64,000 bases of DNA, taken from NCBI GenBank assembly GCA_965178125.1, contig OZ237743.1, positions 744,001-808,000 of the forward strand, given 5' to 3'. Positions 1 through 64,000 of the stretch are shown piece after piece. Position 1 is the first letter of the stretch; every line of letters begins with the position of its first letter. The DNA is from Bilabrum cf. latius. Lineage: Eukaryota. The notes beneath the pieces are model-generated. The model did no database searches. It was given only the letters and a program-made list of their open reading frames with translations, and was not told where the DNA came from. A program made the position numbers and the translations under genes.

Positions 1-3000
1 CGCATTTCCCGGTCAGCCCTTCGCTGCTTGCGACGCTCAATTGAAATCAGCTAGGAGCTTGCCGTAGCTGACCCAAGCCGTACCATCGCAGTCGCTGACT
101 GCATGTCATTGACAGTCGTCCGTGGTCTTGGTTTCGCCGTCTCGGCTGTCCGGAATTCCGGCCTACCACCTTCAATAGAGGCCGATGCATTGAGCCTGTC
201 GACACTCCTTACGGACAAACCTGTCGTCTGCAAAGCGGTTGTGATCTGAGAGACCCCAGAGGACTGCGCCTGGCTGACAATGTCCTAGAACGCAGGAAGG
301 TTGAGGCGCTGCAGTACAGACGCTCCAGTCCAACCACCCGTCTCGGCATCTGCAGCACCAGACGAGGCTGCTGGAGCGCTTGGAATTGGCCAAAGCAGCC
401 TCTCACTTGAGTCACTAGGTACCGCACCGCGGCTCCTTTGCTACTGAGAATCCGGACTAGCATCGCGCCCCAGTTGCAGGCGTGCTTCGGTGGAGTCCTC
501 CAACGCCTGCACCCACGCCGCTGCTGGACTAAGCGATCGACCGACGGCACACGTCACCAATTGAGCCACTGACCGCACCAGCCTGTACCGAGCAGGATCT
601 ACCTGCATGGCAATACGCAGCAGCGAGGCAGACAGCAGGACCGCCTCTTGCACGAGTGCTGGTGATTGAAGCACCGGTGTCTCCCATGACGGTGGAGGCT
701 GCGAGACCTTCGAGGGCAAAGAAACAGGCCTCTAGGTTGGAGCAGCCGCCTTGTCGCCTGATGGCGCGTCCGATTTTCGAGCAGAGCCTATACTTGACTT
801 CTTCATGTCGTGCGCTGCTACGTGCCTCGTATTCGGGAGTGGTGCGAGGCCGAATCGCATGCCCGTCGCTGTCGAAACGTCTCGAGGTTTTGCTCCCGGC
901 CCGATGGTCCAGACATGCATAAATTGGCCCGCCCCGTGGCCACTCTAAGTCGAGGCACCGCTGGCCGCTGCAGCAGCATCCTCAGCAGCTTCCTTCTGTC
1001 TTTTCTGCATGGCGGCCGCAACAGGCATAATTGCGGTCGGCCGGTCATTTCCCTCCTCGTCAATACCGTCCTGCTCTAACGCATCCGCGTCATCGCCTGC
1101 ATATCCTCGATCCCCGTGTCTGTACGTGGGTCTGCACAACGTAGCGATGCACAGGGCTGCTTCCAGGCACATGCGCAGCCAGCTCGGATACCCGCTGCTA
1201 CGAACCTAAGATCTGAGCTGCTGGATAGACCGGGCTATATCATCGTTCTTGCTGGAATTCAGGGATTGTGCCAAGGATTCCGCGGTCATTCTGAACACGC
1301 CGGGCATTGTTTGCGGTCCAACGACTTGATGCTCAGGTGCGGCAAGCCGGCTCGCACCTTCAACGACCGCACCAACTAGCAAAGGCCAGAGCTCCTCTCG
1401 CGCCCTGGAGTGGAGGAAATCTCCGCCGGCTGCCTCATTGCATAGGCTGTCTGCCAAACAGTTTAGCGCGCGAATTCGAAGCTCAACATGCGCGCTGCGC
1501 TGGGCGGATGATGCAATCAGGGGCCAGGATTGTGCAAGCTGCGGTAGAAGCACAACAGGGGAGCCCCGTAGCACAATCAACGACTGTCTCAATACTTGCA
1601 GCGCAGCCGCTGCCACCCTCAGCGATGAGCTTTTGGCGCATGGTGTCGCTGAACGTATGCAAGCCAGTGCGAGGCGTCTCTCTGCCCGCTTGGCGGCAGG
1701 CAGACTGGCAGGTGAAGGCGATTCTCGCCAAACCGTGGCTGCTCGTGCAACAAACCAGTCGTGCTGCATGCACAGCCTCTGCATTGATTCATCGTCGAGC
1801 TCATACTCGTCGTCTGAATCTGGGCCACTGGGCGCCCAAGCAAGCCCAGTGGGAGCGGCAGCCAATGCAACCTGCCACGCATTCTGAATCATATCCTGGT
1901 CTGCGCACCTTGCCGGAGCAGGAGGTGGTGGCTACTTGCCATCTGATCCGGGCATCTGACTCGCAAACTCAGCTCCAGCGACCACGACTCCAAGCATCAT
2001 AGCAATAGTTCGATGCCGAAGCCCAGGAAAAGTCGACCCGGAGGTGCACCTTTGAATGCCCACAGATGCGTCGTCTACTATGGCTTTCACCAGGACAGCT
2101 GGAGCAGTGTTCGATTTTCCTTTGTGCTCGCGCATGCTACGAACGACGAATGCTGCGACTGTGCTTGCTGTTCCTGCGGCCTGGATTCGCACGTGAATTG
2201 GCGACCTCTGAGCAGACTCGCGAGGAGTCGGTTCCAAGGATTGGACGTCTACCAGCCCTCCACTAATCTACTCTTCGCCATAACGCAGCCATATTCCTTT
2301 CTATGCACCTGCTCCTCCCTACCATGCCTCTGTTTGTTCCCGCGAATCAAGCCGCAACGCCGCCCCGAGAGTGTCCAGTAGGACCTAGGCGTTCTCAACA
2401 AGAGCGTTCTGCAGTGCACTATCGTGATCACCCGATTGTTGCTTTGATTCCTGTGCGATGGCACGCTTAGCTCCCAAAAGCAGAGGTGCATCGAGCCCCT
2501 GAGTCCCTGCTGCGACTCCGAGCAGCTGTGGAAACCACACCGGTCGAAACAGCTCTTTGCTTCGCTCTGTCAAGTGCGCATGAGCCTAACGCCAAGCCGA
2601 TATACATTCTTGAACAAACTTGCTGCCAGCGTCGGCAACAAGAGGGGGTGTCACCTCAGCAACTTCCTCTTCACGCAGCGACCATTGTCTGGCCAGGTGC
2701 TGAACAGCAGTCCAGGCCCCTGACCCGCACCAACAAGCAAGAAAGGTGCAAGCCTTTTGCAACTACTCAGATTGGGGCGGCCGAACCGGGGGTTTGAACG
2801 GAGCACCCATTCGAACGATTCGCTCCAGAAGAGATGCGGCACAATCTTGACCCTCGCCCGAGCTGCAGCTGAGGCTTGTCGGTTGCACACCCGACACTGC
2901 GTGGCGAGAAACCGCCATCCACGCGCTAGCACGATCTACCATAGCAACAATTCGAGGCAAGCTCGTGGATCGCTCGCCAGACTCACGAACAGCAAATCGA

Positions 3001-5546
3001 ATTGCGCTGGAAGCCTGCCGCAGCGCGTACCCAATGGCACCCTGAAGTGCCCTGCTTTCGCCACAAGAGGCACACTATAATCCTATCGTTCGTGCAATGC
3101 TGCCCACAAGCCCTTCGATGCTCTCGTCATGTAGTGAAATCCAGGAGTCACCGCCAACGACCGGAGGTGTCTGCCCTAAGGGATTACCAGAGGTAGCGGC
3201 CTCCAGCAGACCCGCAACATGCCCACTTCCAAGCGCAACTCCTCCGCCGTTACCCCCAAACCCACTCAGTTTCTCCCGCTTCTGATGCATACAGGCCATA
3301 AGCAACTCGGAGCACATTGAAAGTACTGTCGCAACCCCCCGTGGCACCTCTTGTTCACGGGACTGGCCAGCAGAGAGCACTGTGGCGGCTTTGCCAGGCT
3401 AAGCTAGTTGGCAGACGGCAAGAAAGAGCCGCAGCTCAGCCACAATGGCGGAGTCAGTGTGGTTTGCTGCTAATGCGCTTCGCACACTGGCAGCACGAGA
3501 CGCCAGTAGGTCCAGTAGAGACGACTGGGTCAGCTGGAACACATCGTTCAGCTCTTGTGCAGCTGGTGGAGCCAGCCGGGCGATCGTATGCTTCAAAGAT
3601 CGGGCTATCTATACAGCCCCTCTCGCTACAAGCGAGTCGGCAGAGTCTGAGCCACCATATTGAGATTTTGAAGCAAGAGCTGCCATGGTCTCCAGCACCG
3701 CAAGAAGGGCGTTAACTCGTTTGCCTTTTGGCGAGGCCACCAGAGCTGAGGTGTGGGCACTACCCGAAAGCTATGGGCCAGAGGTACAGGACTTGCTTGT
3801 GCCTGCACCCTTGACAGCAGTAGCTGCGGCTGCGTCAGCACAGCCATCCATGGATTCATCGATTAATCCAATGCCAAGCAGCTGACCCATGCACCTGGTC
3901 GTGACCAATTCGAGGAGCGGCAGCGCAGCAGCCACCAACCGGGGCGTGCGTGCTTGCGAGAGCTGCACCAGAGCCCGCAAAATGGGACCTAGTAGGTTGC
4001 TGCGAGCTTGCTCTCGGAGGAGGAAAAGTGAATTGACGCCATCATCTCCCAGAGTAACGCTTTTGACGTTCAAGTCTCCGAGCGAACATGCGCACAGCGC
4101 TGCAAGTGCGCCAGCAGCCTCCTCGCCGATGGCACCCTCCATACCGCCGGTGCCTTGGAGCCGAGATTCCGCGAGATCCCCAGCGCCAGTGCCTCCTGAT
4201 TTAGCCCTGCTTGACACCCTCCGCCGCCCCGAGACCACTGAATCCAGCACGCCAATCAAGGCCGATGCGAGGCCAGGCACAAAGGGCCACACTCGCCGGG
4301 GATGCGGTGCAAGGAGTGCTGCCATACGTCTGCTCCCGGCAGGAAGTTCGGCTGGAGCTTCCCTGTAACCTGCAAGCGCTGCTACAACTGCATGTACGAA
4401 GGATATTGCAAGCCGCGTGTCCCCTGCCGTGCTGTCGTCTGCAGGACCAGATCCTTTCGACCCTTGCGATTCTCCACTGCCGCCATTGGCAGCAACCTCC
4501 TGACCGGCGCAATGGATGGCATCCATCGCATAGGCCAGGGCAGGCCCGAGCAGGGAGTTGTCAAGGAGACACTTCGGTAGGGGGAGCGGTGCATTGCATG
4601 GTGGTGGCATCCACCAGCAGCTGGCTGGCATTGGTTCAGCTGCTCGGTCCTACTTCGGGATGCCTTGCTGCTGGCTGGAGGTTGCTGCTGGTGTGTCAGC
4701 CACAGAATCGGCGCAATTGTGGCCAAGTGTCCAGCAGCGAGTTGGAACTCGAGCGAGAGGGGCTCCAGCTGCTCGGCACCATGCCGTCCATGGCTCGGAG
4801 CCCGGCCTGCTTCCCTTGCGGTCACGCCCAGGGGTCACTGGCGTGGGTGCTGTGCCGCCTGATACGCCAGAAGGAGGATCACGGAGTCCCGCCTTCGACA
4901 TGGCAGCGGATAGCTGCAGCAGCATGTATGTTGCCAGCTGAAACGCCGCCCGGCGGGTCTCCAGCTCATCGAGCGACAATGCGTTCTTCCCAGTTTCGGT
5001 CCGATGGGGCGGCCGAGCGAGGGCGACAAGGGCGACGAGCAGAAAGTCTGAAGCCGTGCTGCTCCGAAGCCAAGGATTTACTCCTGAAACCTACAACAAC
5101 GTGCAACAGCACCGCAGGATCGCCTCTTCTGCGCGAAAGCTCTTGCCGACAAGTGCACGCATGCCGATACCTGCCCTCGCAGTCGCCCAAGAGCGAGCTC
5201 GCCAGAGTGGCGAGATAGTAGCCGCTTGTCTTTCTGCCACTGCATCGCTGCTAGTAGCCTGTGACCCAGGACCTCGACCGATAGCAAGAAGCAGAGGCAA
5301 AGCAGTGTAGTCCAATATCTTGTCTTCCCCCGGGATGCCAGAATTATTCACCGTAGTGAGGCCATCCTCCAGGCGATCTATAGCCTATAAGAAGCCGTCA
5401 AAGCACAATCGGATAGTTTGAGCTAATTGCGTACTCATGTCTCCTGGGGGAATGGATGGCAGCTGTTCTGCTGTTCTCATTATGTTGGCCGCTGATCCCA
5501 TGGCTGCCACGCAGTGCGGCTTAAGGAATACAAAAGCAGATACCAT
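1..5546 (-). CDS. TTI1: TELO2-interacting protein 1 (TTT complex, PIKK assembly); 3' end runs off the window; needs TAG=Gln
   Basis: 14 minus-strand ORF-track fragments (51..5621) share one frame and each ends in TAG (plus-strand cta at 51, 441, 732, 945, 1206, 1932, 2385, 2763, 3075, 3399, 3771, 4650, 5091, 5385). Motifs match TTI1: N-terminal MVSAFVFLKPHCV, internal VWPFVPGLASAL, C-terminal LLPQLAQSWPLI...AGGDFLHSRAREELWP. Confidence 0.8.
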
Positions 5547-5891
5547 AATGCAAAGAATATATATGCATAAATAGTATACTCGGACGATTTGGACGCTGCT
5601 CTGCTGTAGGAGCGGTCGCAACCGATTTCAAGGACGCATCCGTTGCTCCCCTCTCACAAAGCTTCCATGGAGCTTCCCAATGTTTAGCAGGGATCAAGCA
5701 ATGTGCAGAATATAGGTAGAACGCTGTCCCAATCCGAGCGCAGTTTCCATAGCTCTGTTCGGTAGCTGCTGCTTGAAGCTGCCCGGTCAGAAGACGCAGC
5801 TTCAACTACTAGCGACCGGCCCATTTCAGGGAAACCTCGGTCTAAGAAGGGCAGCAGAACTGATTTATCCGACAAACTACAATAGTATGGT

Positions 5892-7412
5892 ATGCTCCAA
5901 AGGCCACTGAGCCCCCTCAGATCGGGTCCAAGTGGCGAGACCAGCTCGGCCGTATATACCCCAATGCGTACTGGAACAGATATTGCCCGAAAACGAAGAA
6001 AGCTAAAAACAAAATCTTCGAAAAGATTAGGCATGGATCATAGCTTGGTAATAGTACGCAGGCTAGCTCAGAAGAGCAGCATATGCGTAGCTGCGGTGGA
6101 GCCTCAATGCGTACGCAGGCCGCCCACGGTGGCCAGACTGCAAGACAGGTTACGCACGACCCTATGCACTTGTGAAGTAGTCAAACATCCGTCACATTGT
6201 AAGGATTGCGACAGAATCCGCGCCGAGGCTAGTCTGCAGCGCGCTCAGCTGCAGAGAGCTGCTCTTGAGAACCGAGTTTTTCGCAAGAAGGCTGACAGAT
6301 AGCTGGCTGCAGTCAGAGAAGAGCTTCGACAGTACAAGAAATCGTTGCAAACTGCTAGTGACTTGCAATCTATGGCGAGTGAAAAGCTAGCAGCGCTTCG
6401 CGCAGAGCTGTCAGAGGCCAAGCAGGCCCACACGCAGGCGGAGGGAGTAGCCAAAGCGATGAAACTGTCGCTTGCAGGCCAGCAGAAATCGAACGCAAGC
6501 CTGTAGAAAACAAACGAATCACTGAGAAGCTCGGTACAGGAGAAAGATGGATGGATACAGTCTCTTCAATAGGAACTTGCGAGCACCAAGGCGAGCATCT
6601 AGTCGCGCGAGGCAGCAGCACAGCAGGCCGACCGTTCCAAGCAATTGCTTACAGGAGAGCTAGACATTGCCAAGAAGGCCGCATAGCAGGCGCGCAGTCG
6701 CAACGGAGCACTTCAAACTGAAGTCAATGAGCTCAAGCGCAAACTGGAGCGAACGCAGAGCGAGGTGGATAGCTTGCGCGAAGAAGCCAGCGATCAAGCG
6801 GAGCTACAAGCCAGCCTGGACGACTGGAAGGACAGAGCCTGCCAAGCGGAGTCCCGCGAGTAGTTTTTAAAGTCAAAGCTGGGTGAATTGATTGAGAAGC
6901 GCAAGCAGGATCGCGTCCAGATGGAACGGACTGCCGCAGCTTCGGCGGTCAGCCTCCACGTCACCTCCCCCACGGTGATTGTGAGGGTCACCAACGAACG
7001 CAACGAGACCGCTGATGAGCAGTGCGTGCTCCCTGTGCTTCCGAGAGCAGAGATTCGAGAAGCATTGATCGGCATTCTCTGCAGCCGAACGAGGATTGTG
7101 GCGAGAAAGGGCGGTACCGGCGGTAGCGACCCCAGAGGCTAGACCAAGGCAGGACAGTCGCACGAGGCAGAAGGCCCGTTGCACGGGGCCAGGCGAGAAA
7201 TAGGCAGAGAGGCGGAGACGAGAGATGAAGCTTGGGCAACACAAGTATCGGAAGAGATGCAGGGAGGAATTCTCGAGGCGCTGGAGCCTCTATTTGAGAA
7301 GACTGGGGCGATGCTGCGAACTGAGGCTGCAGGCGAATCTGGTAGATCTGATGGGGCGCGTGGCAGACCTTCGGCAGCAGGTGCCAGGGCTGGGCGGGAG
7401 ACCGCGACTTGA
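5892..7412 (+). CDS. Long coiled-coil protein, unknown function (~506 aa with TAG=Gln; start uncertain)
   Basis: ORFs 5892..6302, 6888..7142 and 7179..7412 are co-frame. The gap translates as heptad-like sequence broken only by TAG (e.g. IQSLQ*ELAST, KKAA*QARSR). Ends in TGA at 7410-7412. Confidence 0.7.
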
Positions 7413-7508
7413 CAGGCTTTCCGATTCCGCATGGCAGTATAGCAAGCGAAATTTCGAAGCAGCATGCAGGCAGCAGCCCATCACTGAGGGCAAAATAACA
7501 TCCATCAT

Positions 7509-7688
7509 ATGGCAGAATACCCTGCCACTGCCCCTGATCCCTCACATGGCAGAATACCCTGCCACTGCCCCTGATCCCTCACATGGCAGAATACCCTGCC
7601 ACTGCCCCTGATCCCTCACATGGCAGAATACCCTGCCACTGCCCCTAATCCCTCACATGGCAGAATACCCTGCCACTGCCCCTGATCC
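7509..7688. repeat. 37-bp tandem repeat, ~4.9 copies (ATGGCAGAATACCCTGCCACTGCCCCTGATCCCTCAC)
   Basis: Units start at 7509, 7546, 7583, 7620 and 7657. One G>A variant in unit 4. No spacers. Confidence 0.95.
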
Positions 7689-8471
7689 GGCCGCTGCTGT
7701 CGAGGCCCACGCCGTGATGAACTCTCGGCATATCGCCTTCAGGTAGAACGCATCCACCTCTGTGAACGCGCCCACCTCTTCGCCATCAATGTCAAGGACT
7801 GCGCAGAGACGCTCCCCTTCTTTCCACTCTTGCTCCCCGCTGGTCTCCTCCCCGGCAGCCGCCGATGCCACGTCGCCTCCACCGGTGGCAGAGCCTTTCG
7901 CCGCCCCAGCGCCATCCGACCCGCTTGATGCCGCAGGAAGAAAAACTGGAACCACAATCTCACTTCTGGTCTCCTCGTCGCAAGCAATGTAGTTCTCGAG
8001 TGCCTTTACATCCTTGATAACCTGTGTTTTCCTATCAGAAGCAGCCGTCCCACACACGCCCTTACCCATGCTGATGAAACCACATGCCAGCACAGTCCCC
8101 TGATACGGACCAACAACAAGTGCCCATTTGCTAGCATTCGGCGCCGACGCAGCCACTGGGAGCCCAGCGCTGTCGCTTGCGGTCGCCACGACAGTGTAGA
8201 AGCCAACGAACCACATCTTGCTGGGAAAGACCGTCTTCAGCACACTAGATATCGTGCTCATGCGCCCAACAAGATCCATATGCTTGCCATACTTTGCAAA
8301 AAAATCTCGAAGGTGCGTGATTGCATTCTGGTAGCCCCTGGCACTCTTCTCATCCTGTCCAAGGCCCACAGCAAGCGGGTCCTTATCGATGTCTGTTGGG
8401 GCACGTCCACAGACTTTGTCCTCACCACCTTTTGCAGAATCTGAAACAATGTCAAACTTGGACCCAAGCAT
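7653..8471 (-). CDS. GAF-domain protein, free methionine-(R)-sulfoxide reductase (fRMsr/MsrC-like)
   Basis: Motifs WFVGFY, GPYQGTVLAC..I.MGKGVCG.AA, YIACD..TRSEIVVPV and VLDID...GAF...D are typical of fRMsr. Ends in TGA; no internal TAG; start ATG uncertain. Confidence 0.8.
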   Translation of the reverse strand: MLGSKFDIVSDSAKGGEDKVCGRAPTDIDKDPLAVGLGQDEKSARGYQNAITHLRDFFAKYGKHMDLVGRMSTISSVLKTVFPSKMWFVGFYTVVATASDSAGLPVAASAPNASKWALVVGPYQGTVLACGFISMGKGVCGTAASDRKTQVIKDVKALENYIACDEETRSEIVVPVFLPAASSGSDGAGAAKGSATGGGDVASAAAGEETSGEQEWKEGERLCAVLDIDGEEVGAFTEVDAFYLKAICREFITAWASTAAAGSGAVAGYSAM

Positions 8472-8575
8472 TTGCGGTGGTTCCTGGTTTCTGGGGACGG
8501 GCGACCAGCCACACAAGTTGTTCCGGGTCCATGCCTATACTATTGCCAAATTCAATATTTCAAGCTTCAAAAATC

Positions 8576-11500
8576 ATGCGAGCAAGCAGGAAACGTAAGC
8601 GCCAAGATGATCAAGCGAAAGACAAGCGAAGGCGGCTCGCAAAAATCCAGCTCTAGATGCCAAGCGACGCATTGCCGTCTCCAGTACTTGCTGCTTGGGC
8701 TTCAAATGAGTCTTGGTTCTTGGGAAGGAATGCATTCAAGCAGCTTTCCAATGGATTAGCTACCGAAATATAGTCACTTGATTACCTCGGACGGGTAAAC
8801 TACGTGAACGATCTGTTGTCTAATTGGGAATCATCCGGCATAGCACCAGTTGCAGTTGTTGCCTGCGCAAGCCTGCTGAACGTTTGTGCTTAGTATGCTG
8901 GTTTGAGGCACCAAGCAGGCGGATATCAACTCACAAGACCTCAAATGTCTCTATTGAGGCTTTCAGCAGGAAGTGCTATTCTTCGATTCGTGAATGCAAT
9001 TGCAGACCACGCCAGGAAAGGCAAGGCAAAGGCTTCAATGGCTTCCTCGCTTGCCATAAGTGCCGAGCGCTCTGGAATTCCAAGGTATTTGGTTGATCTG
9101 AGACATCAAGCAGCGCACGGCTCGTTGCCCTCTTGGACCTCACTCGCTGAGGGACTGCAGCAGGCGCTGCGTTGGGTCGAGCAAAAATATTGGATGCGTC
9201 AGGAGAACTCGTTCAGGTCGAGTCGGGCCAGACGAGAGCAGCTGGTCTCGCTCGCTCTCAACGGACTTATTCGAAGGAGCAACAGGCTACAAGCGAGGCT
9301 AATCGAAGCAGGCCTAGCCTCCACTCACACCGACAGCGCCAGGTGCACCCGAGCCCCTCAGCCGTGGTGGGCGAGCAGCCGCACAGCTCCCATCCTTCTG
9401 ACGGGATCCGTTCTTAAAACCCAATCGGAAGGGAACGCACACGCTGCATGGAGCCCAGATGACTCGGCTAGGCTTGCCGCCAGCCAGGCGGGGGCACCAC
9501 CGACCACAGCTGCCGCAGGTAGAGCGTCTGCCGGCCGCAACCCGTCGCAGTATCTGCATGTGCCTCCCATCGTCGATCCCAGCGCTGGTCAATGGGCATG
9601 CTGGTACACTGCCTGGGCAAGGAGTCATGCAAGGCCTAAACCGACGTCGAGCTCTTCGTCTTCCTTTCGAATTCCCCTCGGGGACATAGAAAAAGGCGGT
9701 GCTGTCGTTGCGCAAGTGCGCACGCTGTGTACCGTGTGCAAGGGTAGACCCACACTCGTTGCAGAGCAAGTTGTGCCTGTCTTGCTTGGAATATCAAGAG
9801 ACAATGGTCCTTTGGGGTCGGGGATGCAGCCCGAGTCGCTCGAATGCTAGACAAGCTTTGAGTCCAGCCAAGGTAGAGCACCCGAACCGACAGGTGCATC
9901 CGATGACGAGAGTCACAAAGCTAGTGCGGCATCGCGAGCAGCGGATGAATGGTGCAGCTACTTCTATTCTGGGTGCACCTCAAACCTGATGGATGCTGCT
10001 CGCTCTTTCGGCGTGAAGGTGGGCTGGCTGCTTGCGCTGGCAAAGTACTCAGACGCAGCGGTGCTGCCAACTTCGCCGCACGACGCGTTCGTTGCGCATG
10101 CGACCGCTGAGCTTTTGAAGGGACTGAGCGATAGTGCTCCATTGCTCGGAATTCGTCCTGTTGCTGCGCCTGCTGAAAGCAGTGGCACAGGCCTGCGTCC
10201 GGTTTTATCCTCTGTGGAGCTTGACTCGGCAGACACCAGCGAATTCATCGCGTGGTAGAGATGGATGCCTGTACTGGTTTGCATCCAGAGAGTTGAGCCA
10301 AGCCTTTGGTCATCGCTGGTGCGCACATGCTGCTATACAGTCGCTTCGGCGAGCGCTCCGCTGCTCCAGGCCGAGCTGGCTCTCAGGCACCTTGCCAACT
10401 CGTGGGGCAGCCTCCCTGCGAATCAAGTTAAAGATGCACTGGTTGTGTCGCACTGTGTGCTTGCAAGGCTGCACCTACGGGTGAGTCGAGCTAGACGATT
10501 GGTTGAGAGGCTGGTCAGTGTTGAATCCTGCGCTGTATTTGGCTTGTGCCCAATGGTGCACCCAACACCCGGCGGTGGGGCCGACGTGACACAGAAAGGG
10601 CAAGAAGAAAGCTTGACTGAGCACCGTCAGAGCCGCACGGCATCCTTTCTTTCCGAGGCAGACAAGCTCGTTAGCCTAATGGAGCGCGCTGAAGCACAGG
10701 CAGCCGCGCAGGAGAGATTGGCTGAAGAGGCCGCTGCAAGCGAGAGCAAGGCGGCAGCTGCGGCAGCTGCCGCCAAGCAAGCAGAGGAGCAAGCAGCCAC
10801 TGCATAGGAAATTCCAGGTTCCAGTGAGGGCTCCATATTTTCTCCACTCAAAAAGACATCGAACCCGCGCGGAAAGGGCAGGAAGGGGAAGAAGAAGCAG
10901 CCAAAGACGCCCAAGCTAGACGTGAAGGAAGAGGGGAGCCCACTAGCGAAGCAACCAGTAAACCCTAAGGCTACGCTTGAAGCCGGGCCGAGCGCATCTA
11001 TACCAGCATAGCCCGTTGAGAAAATGCCTCACCAGTACGAGACTTCTGACACGCCTGCCATAGTCCATTTGGTATCTAGGAGGGCAGGGACAGTTGCGGT
11101 ACCTGGCTCGACCGCCTTGACTGCAGGCGGTCTGGAATTTTCTACTATTGCCGGCCAGTGTTCTGCCATGACATTTCTACCAGACACCTCGAAGCCACAA
11201 GATTCCGGTGGGGCGGCACAGGTGCAAATGGCTGATCGGGGTGAAGGCTTGGCTAGTGCAGATGGCAGCGATGACGACGAAGACGTCGGTGGTGACGTGC
11301 TGGAGCCTGCAGACTCTGGCAGTGACCGAGACAGCGTCTTGCTGGAAGGAGACGAAGACAGTGATGACGACAAGGATATGGGTCAGCATCAGGTCGAAGC
11401 AGCGATATCAGGTGAAGCTGGCGCATCCGAGTCTGCGGTCGCGGATGTGAGCGACGGGGAGGACGATGATGGCGAGGACGAGGACACTGACGACGAGTAC

Positions 11501-12421
11501 TCGATTGTTCAAAGCAACGACAATGACGACGGTGAAGGAGAGAGCGAAGCAGCAGGCACGGCCACGACCAGCCATTCCTCTGCAGAGAAGCTGACCTACG
11601 GTGCGGTGGAAGGTTGCTACAGGCGGGATCTGGTCAAACCAATGAAGCTACCTGTGCTCGAGTGCGCAAGAGTAGTACTGCAGATGCTGCCTAGGTAGGC
11701 ATCGATGGGTCTTGCTAGCTCGAGTGTGCTGGATGACGATGCTCTCAGTCTGGTTGCTCTCCTTGAGAAAGTAGCGCAGCGCGCAGTCCCGCGCGATGAC
11801 CTCCTCCCGCAGCTGTGGCACGGTCCTAGCGATGCAATCGCAGTGGAAAATGCCAGGTAGCTCCTGGAAACCAAAGCTTATCATCCAAGTACCGGCATGA
11901 TTTCGCTTAGCGTTGGAGGCGCATCAGCCGGTCTCGTATCCCGAACTGCTTCTTCCGATGCAAGTGCGAGTTCCAGACCTGCAGCCCCCCAAACCCCGAG
12001 ACTTTCCGAGCTTGAGATGCTGGAGCAAGCGCTGGCAGGTGCAATTCCTGGAGGGCAGGTTGCAATGGAGTCTGGTGAGGGAGCAGCACCAAGCAACGAG
12101 GGAGAGGGTCAGGGGAAGTCTTCGTTGTCTCTATCCTCGTCCTCGTCCTCGTCCTCGTCCTCGGCCATGCAGGGAACAAGTCCTAGCATGGCACCGTGGC
12201 CGGCCCATTGCCCAGTGATTCGGGTCAAGTAGCACCCTTCGCAGGTTCTAGCAGCTGCTCGCCACGAGGCCGAAGCCCAACTCGTTGCAGCAGGAGGCAG
12301 CCAAGACGACAGTGGAGGGGCTGAATGGGGGATTGTGGACCCTGGTTCTGCAGCTTGGTGTTCTCCAGGAATGAATGCCGCAGGCAGCAACTAGATGGAG
12401 GATCTTGATCTCTTGGGATGA
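8576..12421 (+). CDS. LAS1: Ribosome biogenesis endoribonuclease LAS1-like (~1,281 aa with TAG=Gln)
   Basis: LAS1 core motif AILRFVNAIAD...GIPRYLVDLRHQAAHGSLPS...ALRWVEQKYW. Co-frame fragments (8321, 8903, 9989, 10265, 11024, 11897) are separated only by TAG. TGA at 12419-12421. Confidence 0.8.
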
Positions 12422-12578
12422 TCCTGTGCAATCGGGGGATCCGGATTGTTGATGTTTGTTTCCGGTCAAGATCTGGTCTGACGACAGAAAAGCAGAGTTG
12501 CACACCGCATCCTAAATCGTAGGCAGTATCCATCACATGGATTCCAAATTCATTCAAGACAACAATCAAGCTGGCGCC

Positions 12579-40144: not shown

Positions 40145-40157
40145 GGCGCGCCTGCCA

Positions 40158-44706: not shown

Positions 44707-44889
44707 GTGTGCGGCAGCGGCTGCAAAGATAGGATTACTGCCACGAGAAAGAGAGCGAGCAGGCAAGCAACATATTTTGGGGGGATCGGACTGTGATGAC
44801 GATCGCATTGGCTGCGCATGGTCCATATGCCATTTCGTATCGTTCGTACCACAAAGAAAGCAACTGTTGCGCTCCTACTCTTCGCAAGC

Positions 44890-50054: not shown

Positions 50055-50762
50055 ATGAGCATTTTGGCAACCAAAATTAGTGATGTATGTTCTTGCATTG
50101 AGCAAGGTCGGCTCAGCAGGTCCTCGATCGAGGTAAGGATGAAGAATTGCATTGGTAGTGTCCGCCTGCTTCCTTGGCTTCTGCTATCCTTGTTGCATGC
50201 TCCAGTCATGTACCCGATGTATCGCAGGAGACTAAAACATGGGCAAGGCAGCACCCGGTTGATGCCGTATCTTTTTTGAAGAGCTTGGCATCTGCAACGC
50301 ATGACTTACGTTAGAGGCACAAAGACGCGCCGCTTGTAACGTAGCAACCGAGTGCGCATCGTGGGAGTCGAATAGGCTCAAAAACACAGCACGAAACGTC
50401 GTTTGGATCCTCCCGGAACAGAATTTCCTCGCCAGCATCGGCCAGGGCTGGAGAATCCAGACCTGGTGCGCAGGAGCGTGGAAGCTCCTTCAGTCGCGTT
50501 GCACCGCCCCGGCTACCCGTGGATGACGAGGAAAAGAGTGCTATATCGAAACACAAATCGTCTTAGGATAGATTAGACGAAAACCCACCAAATGATCCCG
50601 ATAGCATCAGCAGAGGCAGGCTGCCTTCGCCGAGTCCGTCCGGCAGCGGGTCCTCCACGAGGCAGCACAGCCCATCGGCTGCATCATCCTCAGGAACCGC
50701 ATCATCTATAGCTTCTGCTACTGGACCCCGCGTGTCAAAACGCAGGGCGGGCGATCCGGCGG

Positions 50763-50793
<31 letters not shown>

Positions 50794-53700: not shown

Positions 53701-54832
53701 TCCGCAGAGGATTGCAGCCGCCAGGCAGCTAGTGCATCTGCAAGGTGAGGTTCTGGAGGCACAGGAGGAAGTCTCTGGCGGGAGTAATCGGGCTGAAGCT
53801 AAGGAGCTGTCGCATCGAGGCTGGATGGCGGCAGTCATACAGCACTCCAGTGCCGCCAGGCGAACGATTGCCGCGCGTTTGCTGGCCCCAGTGGCCCCTC
53901 TGTTGGCCGCAGGCCAAGCAGCGCGGCAATCCATGGCGCTGCATTCTGAACCACGAAAGGGTGCTCAGTCGCAAGGGACGGGCTCCACGAGTTCTTCTTC
54001 CGCGCCGTCCCCATCGAGCACCCAATAGTCTCGCGGTGCTCTGGCAGAGTCGGCTGAGTCCAGTGCGGGCATTAGCCTACCTAGAACCGAGGCTGGTATC
54101 GAGGCTGGTATCGAGGCTGGAGCAACAGCTGACGACCAAGCAACCGGATACGAGGCGAGGGTAGTCCTCCCGGTAGGCCCTCACCAAGTCGAGGTGCTGT
54201 TCCAGAGACACTTGAGGCAGATGGAGGCTTGGCGCAACCGGCAGCTGCGAGCCACAGCAGCATCAGCTGCATCCGCACAATCAGACAAGCGTGCTGCCCT
54301 TGAACTACTGAAACGAGAGCGAGTCCAGGCCAGGGCACAGGCAGAAGCCCTCGCCAGTGCCAAGGCATCACTGATGGAGGCGCAGAAAGAAGCGAGGGAC
54401 TGGCACGTGGCTCTAGAGGGCAAGATCGGGCGACTGCAGGCCGAGCGGCAGATGCTGGGTGCCAGCGCAGTGGCTCGCGCGGAAGAGCTCACAGAGGCGA
54501 GAGAGCGCGCAGAGGCTTCCCAAAGGGGCGAGGAGGCGGCGCAGGAGGCGTCTGTTGTTGCAATTGGGCGGGCAGAAGCCGCGGAGAGTCGTGCGCGGGC
54601 CGCTGAGGCAGCGGCAGAGTCGATGAGAGAACAACTCGCGAGGGCCAAAGCCGCGCTGAGGGAGATGGCAAAGGCATAGGCGCAGGGGCAGGGGCTGGTG
54701 CGCGAAGAAAGGTTGGTGGAAATCGATTAGCGAGGTGATCGAGCAATCACAGGCTCAGATGCGGTGGCCGGCGCTGGTTCAGGTGCAGATGTGGGGACTG
54801 GGACTCATCGCACTGGGGGTGTGGATCGTTGA
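50055..54832 (+). CDS. Large protein with C-terminal coiled coil, possibly hamartin/TSC1-like (~1,560 aa; putative exons 50055-50132 and 50228-54832)
   Basis: Co-frame fragments 50732..54679 are joined only by TAG; TGA at 54830. VLFQRHLRQMEAWRNRQL before the coiled coil resembles the hamartin LLYERFKRQQHALRNRRL motif. The gene is well supported; the identity is tentative. Confidence 0.55.
50133..50227 (+). other. Putative spliceosomal intron (95 bp, GTAAGG...TCGCAG)
   Basis: Canonical ends; supplies an ATG-bearing exon in frame with the long downstream ORF. Confidence 0.55.
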
Positions 54833-54984: not shown

Positions 54985-57900
54985 TCACGCAATCGAACCG
55001 AGCAGCGAGTTGTTGTCCTGCACCAGAAGGGTGACCACAGACAAAGTCGCGCCTGAGATAAGCCCCACGATGCCTCGAAGCAGCGCAAAATCGATCACGA
55101 CACCGCCAAACAGCCTCGTGTACATGCCACCCAGCGCGATTTCTACCGAGCGCGCCTCGACTAGATCCACCGAGGACCTGAGCATCTGCTGCAAAGCAGC
55201 CTTCTCCTGGTGTATACTGTCCATGCGACGCTAATGCTTGCTCCGTAAAGGCAAAGATGTGGCCGATGGTGCTGATGGGGCGCTCGCCAATGATCCCTAA
55301 TGAGCGTGCGCTGCAAACTGGACGCTGTGTCCAAGCATGGGCCCGTGACCTTTCGATTGCCGCTAGCCATTGGAAGGAACGCCGATGGGAGGAACTCGCG
55401 TGCCAGTCGGGAACTCCTGCCCCGCGTCGCTTCCGTCTGCTTCTTCTAGACCAGCGAAGTCACGGAGTGCCTACACCATCGTCCTCTGCTGCCCACTGCC
55501 AGCGCTGGATCGCGTCTGTTCACTCCGAGCATGCCCACCGTGCTGAGATTCATCTGGCTTGCTGGAGATAGCCGACCCGCTCGAAGATCCGCTGCGATCG
55601 ACTCTGACAGACCCACCGGTGGATGATCCCCCGCTTGGAGTGCCACCAGAGGACATGTCCGACTTGTCGTGCAGCGCATCGCCAGCGCTCACGATTCGCA
55701 CCCTCCGACGCGGACCGGGATTCTGCAAATCGCGCGCCTCGCTTGTGCTGGAGCTACGGACGGCCCCTGGCGCGCCCGATGCACTGCCTGCAGCACCGAC
55801 GCTATTCGCCATCGCGGGAGGCTGACGGCTCCCTCCTGGTGTCCTTGGCTGGGAGCCGGACTATACAGAATCGTTGCTTTGCTGCTTGCCATCACTGGCC
55901 CCTGCAAACCCCGTCGCGAGTCCTAGCTGATGCTGGCTGCCATTGGCGTCGCTTCCCCACGCCTGTCTGCCGTCACCAGGCACTAGCACGCCCACAGTCT
56001 GTTGCGTTGCGTCAGACGACCTTGGCAAGGAGCCAACAGACTGCCTTCCTGCACTTTGATGCGCGACAGACTCCACCTCGACGGAGTACTGGCCCTGAGT
56101 GGCCCCACTCTGCTACCTGATCACGTAGACCTCGTGGCCTGGAGCAGGTGCCGGCACCGGTAAGCCCAGGGAGTGCATAGATCCGGCGCTTCCCGAGGCA
56201 AGCGAGACAGGCGCGCCCACCGGAACTTCGTATGAGGATGACGTTGCAAAGGTGGGGCTGGAATCGCTTGTGATGCTGTCATCGCCGTAGCCCCTCATCC
56301 TGCCGTAGGTTGCAGTACAGCTGACGAGATCCGCCTGCATCAACGACCTGAGCTTGGCCAGCTTCTGCGAGACCTTGAGCAGCCTAAAATTTGTACCAGC
56401 CTCTATTGCAAGAGTAGTGATGGAACCTCCTGCGGACAGAATCAGATACGCAACCATCACCACGAATGTCGATAGCTCCACCTGGACCACTCCAGCAGCC
56501 ACCAGCACGCAGGCGATCGTCAGCACGAACATCAGCACGGTCGACTGGCCCAAGAATGCACTCATCGGAGCTGCCGCATTCACCGAGTCGTATCTGTCGT
56601 AGTTGTGCAGCACGTCCAACATTGCCGCCCAGGATCGCACGTTGCGGGGCAGCCTCACGTCGACAAACGGGAGACGCGCATCCAGCGCGTCACCATAGTC
56701 GAGCATGCTGGCTACTGAGTTGACTAGCTCTCGCTTTCGCCTTGCCCTGGCAACCATGCGGATCAGAAATCGAAAGTTAACGTAGTTCAGGTTGTACACT
56801 CCGGCACACGCAACTATGAAGATGAGAATGCGCTGCCATAGCAGCACACCATCCTTGAACTGCTCTGTACCACCAGGCAGCGCGTAAGAAATTCCGGGTA
56901 GCAGGAGCACCACTATAGCCGTGATCTTCGTGAAGAGCAGGTCAGTCTCCGAGATTGACGCCCCTGTCGACGCCCGTTGGATGATCTCCTCCACTGCCAC
57001 GCGGGACGGCAGCACCCAAGCGAAGGCTGCTGTCTTCTCCTTCCACACTGCGACATCCTCCTCATTGCGTTGAAATGCGTTATCAATCATCCCGCTAGAG
57101 TCATGAGAGCCGTCGGAGTCATCGCCCGACGACACGTCATCAATAGACTGTGGCAATGAGGCCTCCTCCACGGCGGTGGGAGCAGGGGGCGGGGCTAGCA
57201 TCTTGCCGACGGTGGAGGCTCCCACACTCACGGCACCAGACATGGTGCGTCGGCTCATCAGCAATTTCTGCCTGCGTTTCGCCAGCTTCTTCTTCTTTTT
57301 TCTCACGCGGGCGTCAAGTGCCGCTTGCGCCTCTGACTGCAGGCAGCGAACGTACGCCCTGAAAGTGTACCTTAAGAATGCAGTCGCCTTCGTGCCTCCT
57401 CCCACGACCAGATTCCTACCTCGAATGGCACCCTCGTCCTCATCCAACAGATCATCCTCGTCGTCGTGCGCTCCTGCCTGCGACCCTACCGAGCTGCTCT
57501 CGCTATCGCTGCGTGACCGACCGCTCGTCTCCGATGCTTCGCTGTCGTCAGCTTGCCTAACCATCGCTGTCGCCTCCGTGCCAGTACGCGTGAGGTGCTT
57601 GAACCTGCGTTCCACTCCTACAGCGCTGCTGCCGCCGCTGCCCTTGCTCCCACTCGGCCCCTGCCTGTGGCACCCGACCCTGCTGTCTAGCATCTGGCGG
57701 ATCATTGACTTCCTGCGCATGGGGGCCCGTGGGACCCCACCACCATACGATGCACCCACAGTGTGGTGTTGCCCATGCTTGTCATTGCCTGCAGGGCCGG
57801 AGGTTTTGCTCTCGTTCTTCCAAGCATCCACTGATGGTGGCACACTGTGGCTGCTGCCAGTGGAGGCGTGCGCGAGGAGGTTGGACCTGCTGCTCGTGCG

Positions 57901-58851
57901 CCGCCTGCTCTTCGCCCCTGCGCCTCCCGGTGACTCGCCGCTGTGACTTTGATTACGGCTGCGCGAACCTTCGGTTTCAGCGCCCGCCGAACCCTCACGG
58001 ATTGGCTCCGGCACGTCACATCCCGCCGGAGGGCATGGCTTGGCCCCGCTTGCTGTGCCGCGCGGGTGGGCGGTAGACCTCTGGCGATTTGCTTGGTTCT
58101 TGCTGTCGCCCGTTTGGCGGTACGACAGGTTCGCCTTGTCCTCACCGGGCCTGCTCCTGGGTGAGAGCCTCACCACCGGGCTGGATTCATACTTAGCAAT
58201 GTCTTGCTCCTCTCTCTCGATCTCCAGGAGCTCCGACTCGACTTCTTCGTGCTCCCGCACTACGGCGGCCATCTCATCGCGCTCGTACAGTGTTGTTAGT
58301 AGATCGGGCGTCAGCTCGAGGAGCTCGTGATCGTCGAGGTGCACGCCGGCTGTCAGTTCCGCAACAGTGATTGGGTCCTTGTCCGCTGCTCGCTTCGTTG
58401 CCAGCTAGGTTACGCTCCAGAAGGTCAAAAAGCGATGCCTTTGCTTTCTAGATAGGTGTCCAACGCTAATTGACATGGCAATGCTAGTGTAAAGGTGCAC
58501 GGCTAGCAGCGTTAGGATCTCGGTGGGCACGTAATGGAGAATCAGGGCAGCAGCAGCTCCCACCATGAGCGCAACGAACGCATACCCGGGCGCAAACGTC
58601 GAAAGAAATCTACCATACCAGTAAATATTCCAGCCCTCTTGGTAAATGTACCACGGGGCCACCAGAAGCTGGAAGAAGCACGCCATGAAGTAGCTGCATG
58701 CGTTGCCGAAGTGCAGGTGCCCTGTATGCTTCCGAAGAATCTACTCCCGAGGAGGAACCCACTCTCTACTGTTAACCAGTGAAGTGTGAACTCTTCTAGA
58801 GAAAGGGACCTGCGAAGGCTCGATAGAGTCTGGGTTCGCCTTGCTTCGCAT
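54985..58851 (-). CDS. Multi-pass membrane protein with long hydrophilic loop, possibly PHTF/7TMIC-like (~1,288 aa; start uncertain)
   Basis: ORFs 58405, 56113, 55861, 55471 and 54985 are co-frame; gaps read (55231, 58741) contain TAG. N-terminal TM helices, long loop, four TM helices, terminal TM hairpin; TGA at 54985. Confidence 0.6.
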
Positions 58852-59880: not shown

Positions 59881-62800
59881 TGGCAGCTGGCATCTAACCT
59901 TGTTGCCATTCAATGTCGATCCCTGCGGACTCTTTTGCGCACTCCTAGCTTCCATGATTTACATCACGCAGGAATCATCCATTCTCTAGCTGCATTCCTA
60001 GAGCTTGATAGCTGGAATGACCTACGCATGACCTGCAAGGACCTGCATTCCGCCGGTTCTCAGGTTGACATGCAGCCAATGCTCCGCGAAGCACTTGCCT
60101 AGCGATGCATTCGGCGCATCCATGAAGCGCAGTTGGACCCTTTGAAGTACTCCAATGGTATCTCCCGGATTCTTGGTAGTTGGCTAGCGCTGACAGAGTC
60201 CAGTATGCGGAGTGCAACAGCTCTGCGACATCCGAATGTGCTGGAGCTGAAGCGACTGAGCACCGTGGATCGATCGGATGATGTTGTTGAGCAAGAGCAA
60301 TAGCTGCTCCACAAGGCGATGTACAGCATCTATGCATCTCACGGCCGGCCTGTCTTGGAGGACTACATCAGTCCTGTGCCGCAGGAGATGATCGCGGCCT
60401 TCGAGGAGGAATCTGGTCGCTCCTCAAGAGCCGCTCTTCTAGACGAGGCTGCCATCTGTCCGGATTCTGCGGCCACTCGAGATATCCTTCCAGAGGCGTG
60501 GGCCTGTCTCATTGCCCGCGCAGGCCAGCTGTAGATGCAGGCTTACGTCGGTGAATGCATCCGCAGAGCGAATGTGCTTGCGCCGCCCGTCAGCGAAGAA
60601 GAGTCCGTGAGTCCGGGATACGGCAACTGCACAGCACATGAGATTCGAGCCACATCTGCAAAACCAGCAGAGCCCAAGCCATCATACACAGCGGAGGAGC
60701 TGGGACAGCCGGTGGCAATGCCGCTGTTCCATGCGGCGCTTCTCGTGCTGCTCACAGAAGGCACGGCAGCTGCCACGTCTGCCACGGGCGATGTGCCATT
60801 GCTGAGACCAGAAGCAGAACAGCAGCCCATGGCTCTGACGACATCGGCTGTATACAGCAAGCGCAATCGATACCGGCAGCAGAGAAACAATCGTCCATCA
60901 ACCAGTCGACGAGGGGGCGTGGGGGTAGCCTTAAAAGCAGCCTAGCGGTTGCCTTGCACAACTATGGAGTTCTAGCGTTGGGGTGACGATCCGATATTTT
61001 TCAGACCGGAAGCCCGTTACCTCTTCTCACTGCGTGGTGGGTCTACTTCCAGCAAGTGGCGGCAGCTACAGGCAGACCCAGATCGCCTGGCTGACCTCAC
61101 GCATGCGCTCATGGGACACAGCGAGCACATTCGGCTGGACCCGCTGGGCATACACGACACTCCGCTCCTGGCACAAGAGGAGTACGTTGATTGCGCATGC
61201 AATAAGCCTGCAGAGTACCCTCCAAACTGTCGCCTTGGATCCTACCCAGCCCGAGTGTTCCGATACGCGCACCAGAACTGGCAGGATGCAATAGAAGCTG
61301 ACAGGGAGGCGACATCATTCCGATCCGACTACGCAACTGAAATTCAAATGAGGGACGGCGATTGGGAATCCTACACATGGAGATCCTAGTTGATTTGCGC
61401 TCGCCAGGTTCTGATCCTGCTGCTTTTTGCCTGTGCTACATCGGTGGCTCTGTGGTCACTTGAAGCCAGCAGTGCGTCATCTGGACCCAGGAGGTACTAC
61501 ATGCAGAAGAAGTACATGTGGGACCCAGATCTGGCATCCAATATAAGCGTTAATGCCATGATAGGTGGCGATATCGGTAGTGTTGATGCAATAGATGAGA
61601 AGTTGTCAGTGAGAGGTCAGTACGCGGCGAGATGCCTGCAGCATCTGGTGTTTTCTCAAAGCGATGCTAGGGCGGGTGCCATTCATATGCCGAGGCATAG
61701 CCTTGACCAAACTATTTTGTCTGGGACGCACGTTGCAAGAAGCATGACGAAGACTTCAAAAAGCTCCTTGTCCCTTCAAGGCAGGTGCAGTGGCAGTATC
61801 GAGCACCAGCTCGCTGACCTGCGGTCCATTCGGTAGAGTTACAACCCCATAGGCACGCCTCTAGCAGTGCGAGGCACCGCAATGATCCTCTTGGCATGTA
61901 CGTTTGTCGTGTACACTTTTCATGCTGCTCTGAATGCTGCCGTGGAGTGCCTCGTTGGGAACCAATAGCGCGGAGCACGCGAGCCTCACATTGCGTGCGA
62001 GGCCATCACTCGAAGCGTATGCATCCTGCCGAGGCCAGTCAGAGACTTCGCTGCAACGCACAGCTGGCCCTACTTGCATTATGTGAGCTATGATGCCATG
62101 GGCGAACTGTACGCACTGGTCCCGTTTGCAGTGTTGATCGCTGCATCGAGCTGCCTATCTCTCGTGTTGACGGACGACCCCCTGAGTCGATTCGCGCCCC
62201 CAGTCTGGTGCGACCACCTGTCTGTCATGCCGTACATCGCATGCATACTACCAGTGCTGGGCCATGTCATCGTGGCGCGACCATGGGACTGGATGCTGAG
62301 TCAGCTGGTGGACGACCGCGGCTGCGTGCTGAACTTTGGGGATGAGAGGTCGAGCGTAGTAGCGTACATGGCAGGCGGCGAGTGGTTGTCAGTGAAGTCT
62401 CGATGGCTATACACGGGCGAAGTGGAGCAAGGGCACAATGACGGTGTGCCTCGTGTGTACTCGCGCTTCGGGGAGTCTGCTCGGACCGGCTTGATCGCAG
62501 TCGCCTGCCTCATTTTAGTTTCGCTTTTTGACATCCTCTTTGTCCTGGCCGATCAGTATGGATGCTTTGACGTGGAAACACTGTAGAGTATCACAAGCAT
62601 GCAATACAAGGTGGTGAGCAAGTTTACAGTCGCTGTTGTATTCTGCGTGTTTTTGTAGAGGCGCGTCGGCAAGACTCTCTAGGTTCGTCTCTACGACATA
62701 CCCCTAGCCAATGCGAGCTCGCGCAGTGCTGATGTTTGGCGCTGGTGCGAGCGGTAGGTCTCAATCGTGTATGCATTCGGTACGGACATTTTGACTCAGG

Positions 62801-64000
62801 GACACTTTGCCGCCGGTTTATTGGAACTGCCCATTTAGGCTTGCTTTTTAGAAACGAATGCAAATACGGTCATGCAGACCGTTTTCATGTGGTTGATTGT
62901 CTACTATGTCCTCGTGCTGTGCTCTGCTTGGATGCACCCGATTAATCTCTCCCCCAAGAGAACAAGTAGGCCTCCAATAGGACTCATATCAGGTAGTTGG
63001 GCTCATCAAGAGGCGAGACAGATTGTGGACAAGGCTGCAGCAGGCTCTCACAGCATAAACGGAGTCCATTGCCAACGTAAAACACGGTTTACATGCCAGC
63101 GCCCCGACAACGACATATACCTTGTCTAGCAGGGTGTTGCTGCGTCTATCGGGCGCATGCAGTTGCTGCGAGCCACCCGGCTCTAGGCGATGGTGGCAAG
63201 TGCTGGCCGGGCTCTGGTGCAGGCCGCAAGCGCAGCGGCAGTGCCTCTTTCCGACATATCGAACGCTGCAAACTTGGCGTTCAATTCTGTTGGTGCGAGC
63301 CAATCGGACGTTTGCTCGTTGAGTCGGCAGTTTGAGCTGTCGTTGTTTTGGCAAGCAGAGCACCGGAGACTCTCCAGATAGGCCGCTAGTTCCGATCGAC
63401 CGCTGACAGCGGACGAGAGGGACATTTTGCGCACCTGCGACCGTCCAATGTCCGACAAACTCATTTCCTATAGAGCGATACAGACGCAGCGTGCAGTATA
63501 CTGGCTGTGGGACCATTGCAGGGGTCACGAATAGGCACCCTATCTTGGCAGTGCTGGAGAGGCGTCGAGCGAAGACATGGTCGACCGAGCTGCTGATCTC
63601 TTGCTCGGCATGGTGACTTTGCTTGATTGCGAAATCAGGCGGAGGGCACCCACACGCGTGTATGCAGGTGCTTTGACAAGCGAGGCATCAGCGCAGGCCC
63701 TGTCCAGTCCAAGCGGAGACAACAGTGTGACGCAGCGTGCCGCTCGGAAGCGCGCCGCGCTGGCCCACGCCTTGCGCTGCATCCCTCGATCGAAGCTCCT
63801 CCTGCTCGAGGCTGTGGACAACCAGGACAGCCTGAGCAGCATGCTGCAGCTGTGGACCCGGACTGTATCTGACAAGGAGATCGGGCCTCTCGGGCTACGA
63901 GACGTCGAGGTGGCGAGCCCGCAGGTGCATGTGCTCCGTAAGCTGTACAGCAGGGCAGTGAGCGCTGCTTGCTAGAGGATTACGCGCGAAGGTGATGAAA
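59881..64000 (+). CDS. Hypothetical multi-pass membrane protein with N-terminal F-box-like motif (partial; start unresolved, runs off the window)
   Basis: One frame is open from ~59881 to the window end except for many TAGs (e.g. 60532, 60943, 61387, 61834, 62584, 63127, 63379, 63973). SFHDLHHAGIIHSLAAFLELDSWNDLRMTCKDL is F-box-like; several hydrophobic helices. Confidence 0.6.

Follow-up and report, generated by a model that had tools for sequence, protein, structure and literature searches.

In a 64,000-nucleotide stretch of DNA (the window: contig OZ237743.1 of assembly GCA_965178125.1, positions 744,001 to 808,000, filed under Bilabrum cf. latius), the triplet TAG recurs within long open reading frames (ORFs). 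The explanation that best accounts for the data, and one that we consider very probable, is that the window comes from the nuclear genome of a GC-rich, intron-poor, bicosoecid-related stramenopile in which UAG is an ordinary glutamine codon, while UGA (mainly) and UAA terminate translation. This combination of one reassigned and two retained stop codons is that of NCBI table 15.

TAG within open reading frames

The G+C content of the window is 60% (0.55–0.63 per 4-kb bin), and its two strands together hold 1672 TGA, 976 TAG, and 329 TAA triplets. With the standard stops, the longest stop-to-stop ORFs reach 1490, 768, and 763 aa. With TAG read as sense, the longest ORFs are 4094, 2542, 1875, 1576, 1381, 1366, 1304, 1108, and 902 aa, each containing 4 to 20 TAGs. 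Nine ORFs of at least 900 aa are therefore present when TAG is sense, against one under the standard code and one when either TAA or TGA alone is made sense. Reading TAA alone as sense lengthened none of the 15 longest ORFs, and reading TGA alone as sense left the longest at 1490 aa and the second at 871 aa. Taken naively, the summed length of ORFs of at least 300 aa would speak for TGA rather than TAG (37,855 aa with TGA as sense, 30,126 aa with TAG as sense). This larger sum arises because TGA is the commonest stop triplet in the window; its removal opens many medium-sized frames across all six frames without fusing them into frames of gene size.

Codons were counted in 13 ORFs from the first ATG of each, with a fourteenth, phosphoesterase-family gene treated separately. 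Among these 17,734 codons there were 120 TAG, no internal TAA, no internal TGA, and no frameshift. Read in the remaining two frames, these ORFs contain 135 and 139 TAG, 37 and 53 TAA, and 313 and 379 TGA. TAG is equally common in and out of frame, while TAA and TGA are wholly excluded in frame. Eleven of the 13 ORFs end within the window, ten of them at TGA and one, a CRAL/TRIO-domain gene, at TAA; the phosphoesterase gene also stops at TGA.

A codon-usage score trained on the other genes was applied to the 103 segments of at least 30 codons that lie between TAGs. The reading frame scored best in 91 of these segments, and the score was positive in 97. Over the 60 codons past each of the 11 terminal stops, the same score ranged from −0.19 to +0.03.

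Counted ORFs contain 195 CAA and 493 CAG codons, a ratio of 0.40. If TAA and TAG were used in the same proportion, approximately 47 in-frame TAA would be expected; none was seen, and TAA is therefore not a glutamine codon. The lack of internal TAA across the counted codons rules out a code in which UAA and UAG both specify glutamine (NCBI table 6), and the joint lack of internal TGA and TAA rules out codes of the Condylostoma and Blastocrithidia types, in which all three stops are sense.

Overall, TAG makes up 15% of glutamine codons (120/808), and its use is uneven among genes. An IPT/TIG and cadherin-repeat gene has 8 TAG beside 141 CAG and CAA (5%), a TTI1-like ORF has 20 beside 82 (20%), and the frame at 60028–63999 has 18 beside 51 (26%). 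This unevenness suggests gene-specific selection against TAG, and would fit expression-linked avoidance or residual competition from the release factor eRF1 at UAG.

Uneven usage would also be expected if UAG were ambiguous, read as glutamine within genes while still terminating certain genes or acting as a stop close to 3′ ends, as happens in ciliates whose stop codons have dual uses, so that reassignment would be incomplete. In keeping with this, an in-frame TAG occurs within 60 codons past the terminal stop in 5 of 11 genes, and most TAGs lie in poorly conserved stretches: at 12 of the 19 TAG sites in the GBF1-like gene, no more than 12 homologues could be aligned. The data are likewise compatible with TAG terminating some genes, a point that tells against a complete reassignment. 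However, the 11 ORFs ending in the window and the phosphoesterase gene all have a TGA or TAA terminator, with no need of a TAG stop in any of them, and the near equality of in-frame and off-frame TAG counts indicates no avoidance. The last inter-TAG segment scores positive in 13 of 13 genes, a result qualified by three (Las1, CRAL/TRIO, and the ORF at 50984–54832) in which frame 0 is not the top-scoring frame of that segment. We regard an ambiguous UAG as unlikely, though less so than the other alternatives weighed below.

Related sequences with the same trait

Most comparative evidence for UAG as a glutamine codon comes from two genes of the window:
12579–20177, minus strand: GBF1-like ARF-GEF of 2532 aa (Pfam Sec7 2.1e-59, HUS 4.8e-29), with 19 in-frame TAGs and a TGA stop.
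23647–35697, plus strand: IPT/TIG and cadherin-repeat membrane protein of 4016 aa (Pfam TIG 8.2e-34, Cadherin 3.9e-14), with 8 in-frame TAGs and a TGA stop.

The GBF1-like protein has 57 homologues of near-equal length. A metagenome scan with the GBF1 N-terminus as query returned a sole locus, the contig L001 (3675 bp, 59% G+C), which is 74% identical to the window in amino acids and approximately 72% identical in nucleotides. Its GBF1 frame runs for 789 codons up to the contig end and includes five TAG, no TAA, and no TGA. The neighbouring gene on L001 is syntenic with the ORF at 20493–22433 of the window, and the conserved C-terminus of this pair is followed by TGA in the window and by TAA in L001, which provides a further TAA terminator. 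The first-pass annotation had proposed, from the window alone, that UAG is a sense codon and that UAA and UGA remain stops. Both proposals are borne out, the former by the in-frame TAGs, the joining of ORFs, and the conservation of TAG across species, and the latter by the lack of internal copies and by these alternative terminators at one conserved C-terminus.

Other relatives were found as protein fragments only, through a search for shorter proteins. Fragments P0060, P0063, and P0157 derive from one 8232-bp contig and are 96–98% identical to the window, and P0142 and P0163 derive from one 5934-bp contig at 78–84% identity. Two more fragments, P0058 and P0106, are exact pieces of the L001 frame, and a TAG directly follows in both of the two cases with DNA at hand. 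From these sequences, the reading of TAG as sense is probably common to at least three related species, two of which, besides L001, are judged by the fragmentation of their proteins. It counts against this extension that the ends of P0060, P0063, P0157, P0163, P0142, and P0179 are presumed to be TAG; P0058 and P0106 are the two fragments whose DNA was checked. Between the closest relatives, at 96–98% identity, there are three TAG/CAG differences and one shared site within approximately 610 aligned residues.

Four additional short database proteins (P0164, P0166, P0167, and P0168) match GBF1 residues 336–407 only (72 residues, 74–75% identity) and have unrelated flanks. They resemble single exons translated on into adjoining introns, and would come from another relative, one whose GBF1 gene contains introns.

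Amino acid assigned to TAG

Five TAG sites in the window could be compared with close relatives in well-aligned columns, defined as at least 60% identity over 12 flanking positions without gaps:
19992–19994, minus strand: TAG at GBF1 residue 62; L001 has TAG and P0142 has Q, and distant homologues have Q in 23 of 28 well-aligned sequences.
19740–19742, minus strand: TAG at GBF1 residue 146; L001 has CAG and P0142 has Q, with identical flanks, and of 34 distant homologues, 27 have K and 3 have Q.
18543–18545, minus strand: TAG at GBF1 residue 545; L001 has CAG in an otherwise identical stretch, and P0063 ends just before it.
18033–18035, minus strand: TAG at GBF1 residue 715, in the Sec7 domain; P0060, from the 96.6% identical relative, has Q, and L001 has GGC (G).
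26557–26559, plus strand: TAG in the TIG/cadherin gene; the fragment P0243 (62% identity) has Q.

The fourth of these is the TAG that had been reported inside the Sec7 domain at 18033, and its position there was confirmed. Of eight well-aligned comparisons at these sites, six show Q, one shows G, and one shows TAG. When substitution frequencies are estimated from the 1796 aligned pairs of this set, the log-likelihood for the meaning of TAG is −7.7 for glutamine, −23.7 for glutamate, −24.1 for histidine, −26.5 for tryptophan, and −28.2 for lysine; leucine and serine fall outside the eight best-scoring amino acids. The background frequency of Q in the relatives is 2.8%, and in 72% of comparisons a CAG or CAA codon of the window is matched by Q.

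The reverse comparison examined which window codon lies opposite the point where a relative’s fragment ends. Six ends were found opposite CAG (19209, 18984, and 17589), GAG (19659), TAG (18543), and CAA (27892). L001 has Q at the position of the GAG, and the CAA lies in the TIG/cadherin gene, where P0179 (66% identity) ends just before it. Two ends were left out, those of P0243 (opposite a window TAC) and P0274 (one residue out of alignment), both of which may be contig-end cuts. L001 also has TAGs opposite AGC, ATC, ACG, and GCG of the window, all in gapped, low-complexity stretches and hence outside the well-aligned count; two further window TAGs in GBF1 fall in such stretches relative to L001. 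Glutamine had been assumed as the meaning of UAG in the first-pass annotation, and the TAG/CAG exchanges with relatives together with the likelihoods support that assumption.

Among distant GBF1 homologues (MAFFT and BLAST alignments), three of the 19 TAG sites have at least 28 well-aligned homologues. Distant homologues could also be compared at two TAG sites in TIG repeats: at one, three of four have Q, and at the other, Q occurs in 6, E in 5, and T in 3 of 21. Distant homologues, as far as alignments can tell, agree weakly with glutamine, and the distant GBF1 columns appear by themselves too mixed to settle the amino acid.

Several of these comparisons weigh against glutamine. The assignment draws on two genes and approximately ten independent sites; L001 has G at one well-aligned site, and R and S/T occur at two poorly aligned ones. 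Lysine prevails among distant homologues at residue 146, as listed above, and residue 715 is P in 24, D in 19, and K in 5 of 56. The TAG site of an S28 peptidase in the window is S, S, L, L, and L in five PDB chains and is uninformative. If UAG instead specified a different residue, such as Glu, Lys, Leu, or Tyr, as happened in other reassignments, distant columns favouring K, D/P, or L would be in keeping with such a meaning. Against this stand the log-likelihoods from well-aligned close relatives, in which glutamine exceeds every other candidate, and the CAG or CAA codons opposite four of the six fragment ends in relatives. We therefore consider a different amino acid very unlikely.

The exchanges between TAG and CAG would look the same if the code were standard and genomic TAG were corrected to CAG in mRNA by site-specific U-to-C editing, and that the window is known from DNA alone counts against codon reassignment to this extent. 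Such editing would have to be exact at some 0.7% of all codons, across all genes and at TAG only. We know of no nuclear U-to-C editing system of this kind in protists. Conservation of TAG between species at two sites is also more easily explained if TAG is a plain codon. Editing thus seems more improbable still than a different amino acid.

Independent assemblies

Seven public runs from three studies, none of them recorded as RNA, contain the stretch, and four of them were compared as Logan contigs over positions 1–20000 of the window. Contigs from X5 and X6, which belong to studies other than that of X1, include long parts with no differing letter, TAGs included (for example, X5: 12626–18001 and 1–3901; X6: 12572–14240, 14240–16953, and 16941–18652). 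Only two differences were reported over the 20 kb, each in a single low-depth contig: a G>A substitution in X7, at depth 4.6, and the loss of one base in X6, at depth 3.5.

Systematic base-calling or assembly errors, or the decay of pseudogenes, could also place stop triplets within genes, and nothing beyond the bare presence of those triplets points to either. Identical letters recur in long contigs from three studies, the counted codons include neither an internal TAA or TGA nor a frameshift, and L001 has TAGs at other positions of the same GBF1 gene. The probability that the TAGs are artefacts or signs of decay is, in our view, negligible.

Letter-identical sequence from positions 1–20000 of the window occurs in runs of three studies under three different organism labels. 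The organism therefore seems to accompany other organisms repeatedly, as an associate or a co-occurring microbe, rather than being the labelled subject of these runs.

At 12126–12170, near the 3′ end of the Las1 gene, a low-complexity segment attracts many unrelated contigs in all four runs, with a summed depth of 417–1886 compared with approximately 10–40 elsewhere and many loose ends. This has the look of a widespread acidic-tract repeat rather than of something particular to the locus.

Phylogenetic placement

The best named matches to the GBF1-like protein are Cafeteria roenbergensis (42%), Chrysoparadoxa (40%), oomycetes (38–40%), and Ectocarpus (36%); other best long matches reach 45–48%. 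A single-gene tree was built from the HUS and Sec7 regions of GBF1 (31 rows, 456 columns, IQ-TREE, LG+C20+F+G4). Window and L001 group together (100/100), and their sister is Cafeteria with one further sequence (97/92). The window falls within a 13-row clade (100/98) beside an ochrophyte and oomycete clade (94/91), all nested within a clade of stramenopiles (99/98). Grouping the window lineage with oomycetes is rejected by an AU test (p 8e-5), and a quick 35-row tree agrees with the 31-row tree. Long branches (0.76 and 0.71) lead to both members of the sister pair.

On this gene phylogeny the organism can safely be placed as a stramenopile, and its proposed kinship with bicosoecids is only a lead. 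An earlier description of the window as stramenopile-like and GC-rich is in agreement with its base composition, the best named matches, and the tree. Cafeteria roenbergensis itself has a GC-rich, intron-poor genome.

Proposed decoding mechanism

By analogy with the mechanism established in other reassignments, a tRNA-Gln(CUA) and an eRF1 that has lost recognition of UAG could be the means of change here. UAG would be decoded by a tRNA-Gln(CUA), one mutation away from the CUG form, and eRF1 would no longer release at UAG while still releasing at UAA and UGA. New TAGs would then arise from CAG through C-to-T transitions, which would now be synonymous.

The machinery was unseen in the DNA at hand, which is a further point against this account: tRNA scans returned no genes in the whole window and none in contig L001, an Rfam search of the window gave no matches, and no eRF1 gene was found by Pfam among the window ORFs.

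Gene content of the window

In addition to the GBF1-like and TIG/cadherin genes, the following genes and ORFs were recognised, with in-frame TAGs counted from the first ATG:
3–5546, minus strand: TTI1-like HEAT-repeat ORF with 20 in-frame TAGs; its 3′ end lies beyond the window edge.
5667–7412, plus strand: coiled-coil ORF with 10 in-frame TAGs and a TGA stop; its sole match, to DUF745, is weak.
8531–12421, plus strand: Las1-domain protein (Pfam Las1 3.7e-23) with 11 in-frame TAGs and a TGA stop.
20493–22433, minus strand: ORF without an assigned family, with 2 in-frame TAGs, a TGA stop, and a conserved C-terminus.
36216–39515, minus strand: rhamnosidase-like glycoside hydrolase (Pfam Bac_rhamnosid6H 5.9e-11, Bac_rhamnosid_C 4.6e-8) with 4 in-frame TAGs and a TGA stop.
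40423–42128, plus strand: Phosphoesterase-family gene in two exons (40423–41233 and 41497–42128) with 1 in-frame TAG, in exon 1, and a TGA stop.
41234–41496, plus strand: canonical GT..AG spliceosomal intron of 263 nt, whose excision fuses both Pfam Phosphoesterase halves in frame.
43237–44706, plus strand: S28 serine carboxypeptidase (Pfam Peptidase_S28 7.8e-56) with 1 in-frame TAG at 43651, in an S28 motif, and a TGA stop.
44818–47508, plus strand: PX-domain protein (Pfam PX 2.2e-6) with 7 in-frame TAGs and a TGA stop.
47656–48936, minus strand: CRAL/TRIO-domain protein (Pfam CRAL_TRIO 7.5e-20) with 2 in-frame TAGs; the only TAA-terminated ORF among the 13.
50984–54832, plus strand: ORF without a Pfam family, with 10 in-frame TAGs and a TGA stop.
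54985–58851, minus strand: membrane-protein ORF without a Pfam family, with 8 in-frame TAGs and a TGA stop.
60028–63999, plus strand: membrane-protein ORF without a Pfam family, with 18 in-frame TAGs (19 in the whole frame, 60025–63999); it runs past the window edge.

Of the gene names given in the first-pass annotation, LAS1 and GBF1 stand, the latter by its Sec7 and HUS domains, while TTI1 is a weak call: the match to Pfam TPR_TTI1_C (E 1.5e-5, 25.3 bits) is under the cut-off of 27. The phosphoesterase halves match the Pfam profile at 1e-47 (profile positions 8–286) and 1.2e-15 (positions 288–354). The intron between them is the sole one recognised in the window, and the 13 other frames read as single exons. 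A GT..AG intron is normal eukaryotic nuclear gene structure, and the window is ordinary, intron-poor nuclear DNA.

Upstream of the ORF at 50984–54832, the frame is open for a further 294 codons (50102–50983) with five extra TAGs, and translation may really begin farther upstream or beyond an intron. A search for shorter homologues of the ORF at 60025–63999 gave no matches among 8000 candidates. The three family-less frames at 50984–54832, 54985–58851, and 60028–63999 (approximately 1280–1320 aa) may be lineage-specific membrane or low-complexity proteins. Two antisense frames, at 27145–28764 (minus strand, 539 aa, stop-free) and 43216–44892 (minus strand, 558 aa, five TAGs), were treated as by-products of GC-rich coding DNA rather than as genes. 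Long antisense frames are typical of such DNA and are a trap for gene callers.

Significance and comparison with known codes

Nuclear stop codon reassignments are rare, and changes of UAG that keep UAA as a stop are rarer still. We found no nuclear UAG reassignment in stramenopiles in the full-text collection searched, where subscription journals and supplements are sparsely covered and an earlier description may have been missed; the one stramenopile code paper encountered there concerns labyrinthulean mitochondria. The code itself is already known, and what appears to be new is a stramenopile lineage with UAG as glutamine. If this is true, an independent origin would be added in a supergroup for which we found no literature precedent, and in a GC-rich setting where TGA rather than TAA is the main terminator.

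We lean modestly towards a broader interpretation, in which an unrecognised bicosoecid-related clade changed to UAG as glutamine independently of all known cases, making this the first nuclear code change in stramenopiles. The clade would comprise the window organism and at least three further sequence types, with GBF1 amino-acid identities of approximately 97%, 78–84%, and 75–79%, from several public metagenome or run assemblies. TAG and CAG would turn over fast within it, and the avoidance of TAG suggests that the release factor is still competing. Relatives at such graded distances offer a basis for dating the change and for comparing eRF1 and tRNA-Gln before and after it. There is also a practical consequence. 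Standard gene callers shatter genes of this kind, public protein databases hold the relatives as fragments only, and without re-annotation that reads TAG as glutamine, genomes and metagenome bins of such organisms will appear incomplete or full of pseudogenes.

The nearest named relative in the GBF1 tree, the bicosoecid Cafeteria roenbergensis, is likewise a stramenopile. Unlike the window lineage, it has a GBF1-like protein (P0059) that is annotated as a single, unbroken product of 803 aa, as expected under the standard code. The code of ciliates, dasycladaceans, and hexamitids resembles that of the window in reading UAG as glutamine, and differs from it in that TAA is not sense in the window. 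The ciliates in which UAG alone became glutamine are alveolates and have AT-rich macronuclear genomes, whereas the window lineage is a GC-rich stramenopile.

UAG-only reassignments on record include an uncultured sainouroid rhizarian (Leu), Scotinosphaera (Ser), Iotanema spirale and Protocruzia tuzeti (Gln), and phyllopharyngean ciliates (Leu, Gln) (PMC11687900, PMC5304391). The sainouroid rhizarian and Scotinosphaera have in common with the window that the change is confined to UAG, with UAA and UGA kept as stops; the amino acid differs. Protocruzia tuzeti and two phyllopharyngean lineages each changed UAG only, to glutamine (McGowan et al. 2024, PMC11687900), and thus share both the codon and its meaning with the window, through repeated independent origins. 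The fornicate Iotanema spirale is reported to read UAG as glutamine and to use UAA as its primary terminator (Panek et al. 2017, PMC5304391). Its code matches that of the window: UAG specifies glutamine, UAA and UGA terminate, and the meanings of UAG and UAA are decoupled. It differs in belonging to Metamonada, in its code having been shown from transcriptomes whereas that of the window comes from DNA, and in its main stop, UAA there compared with TGA in 11 of 12 window genes, a preference that fits the 60% G+C of the window.

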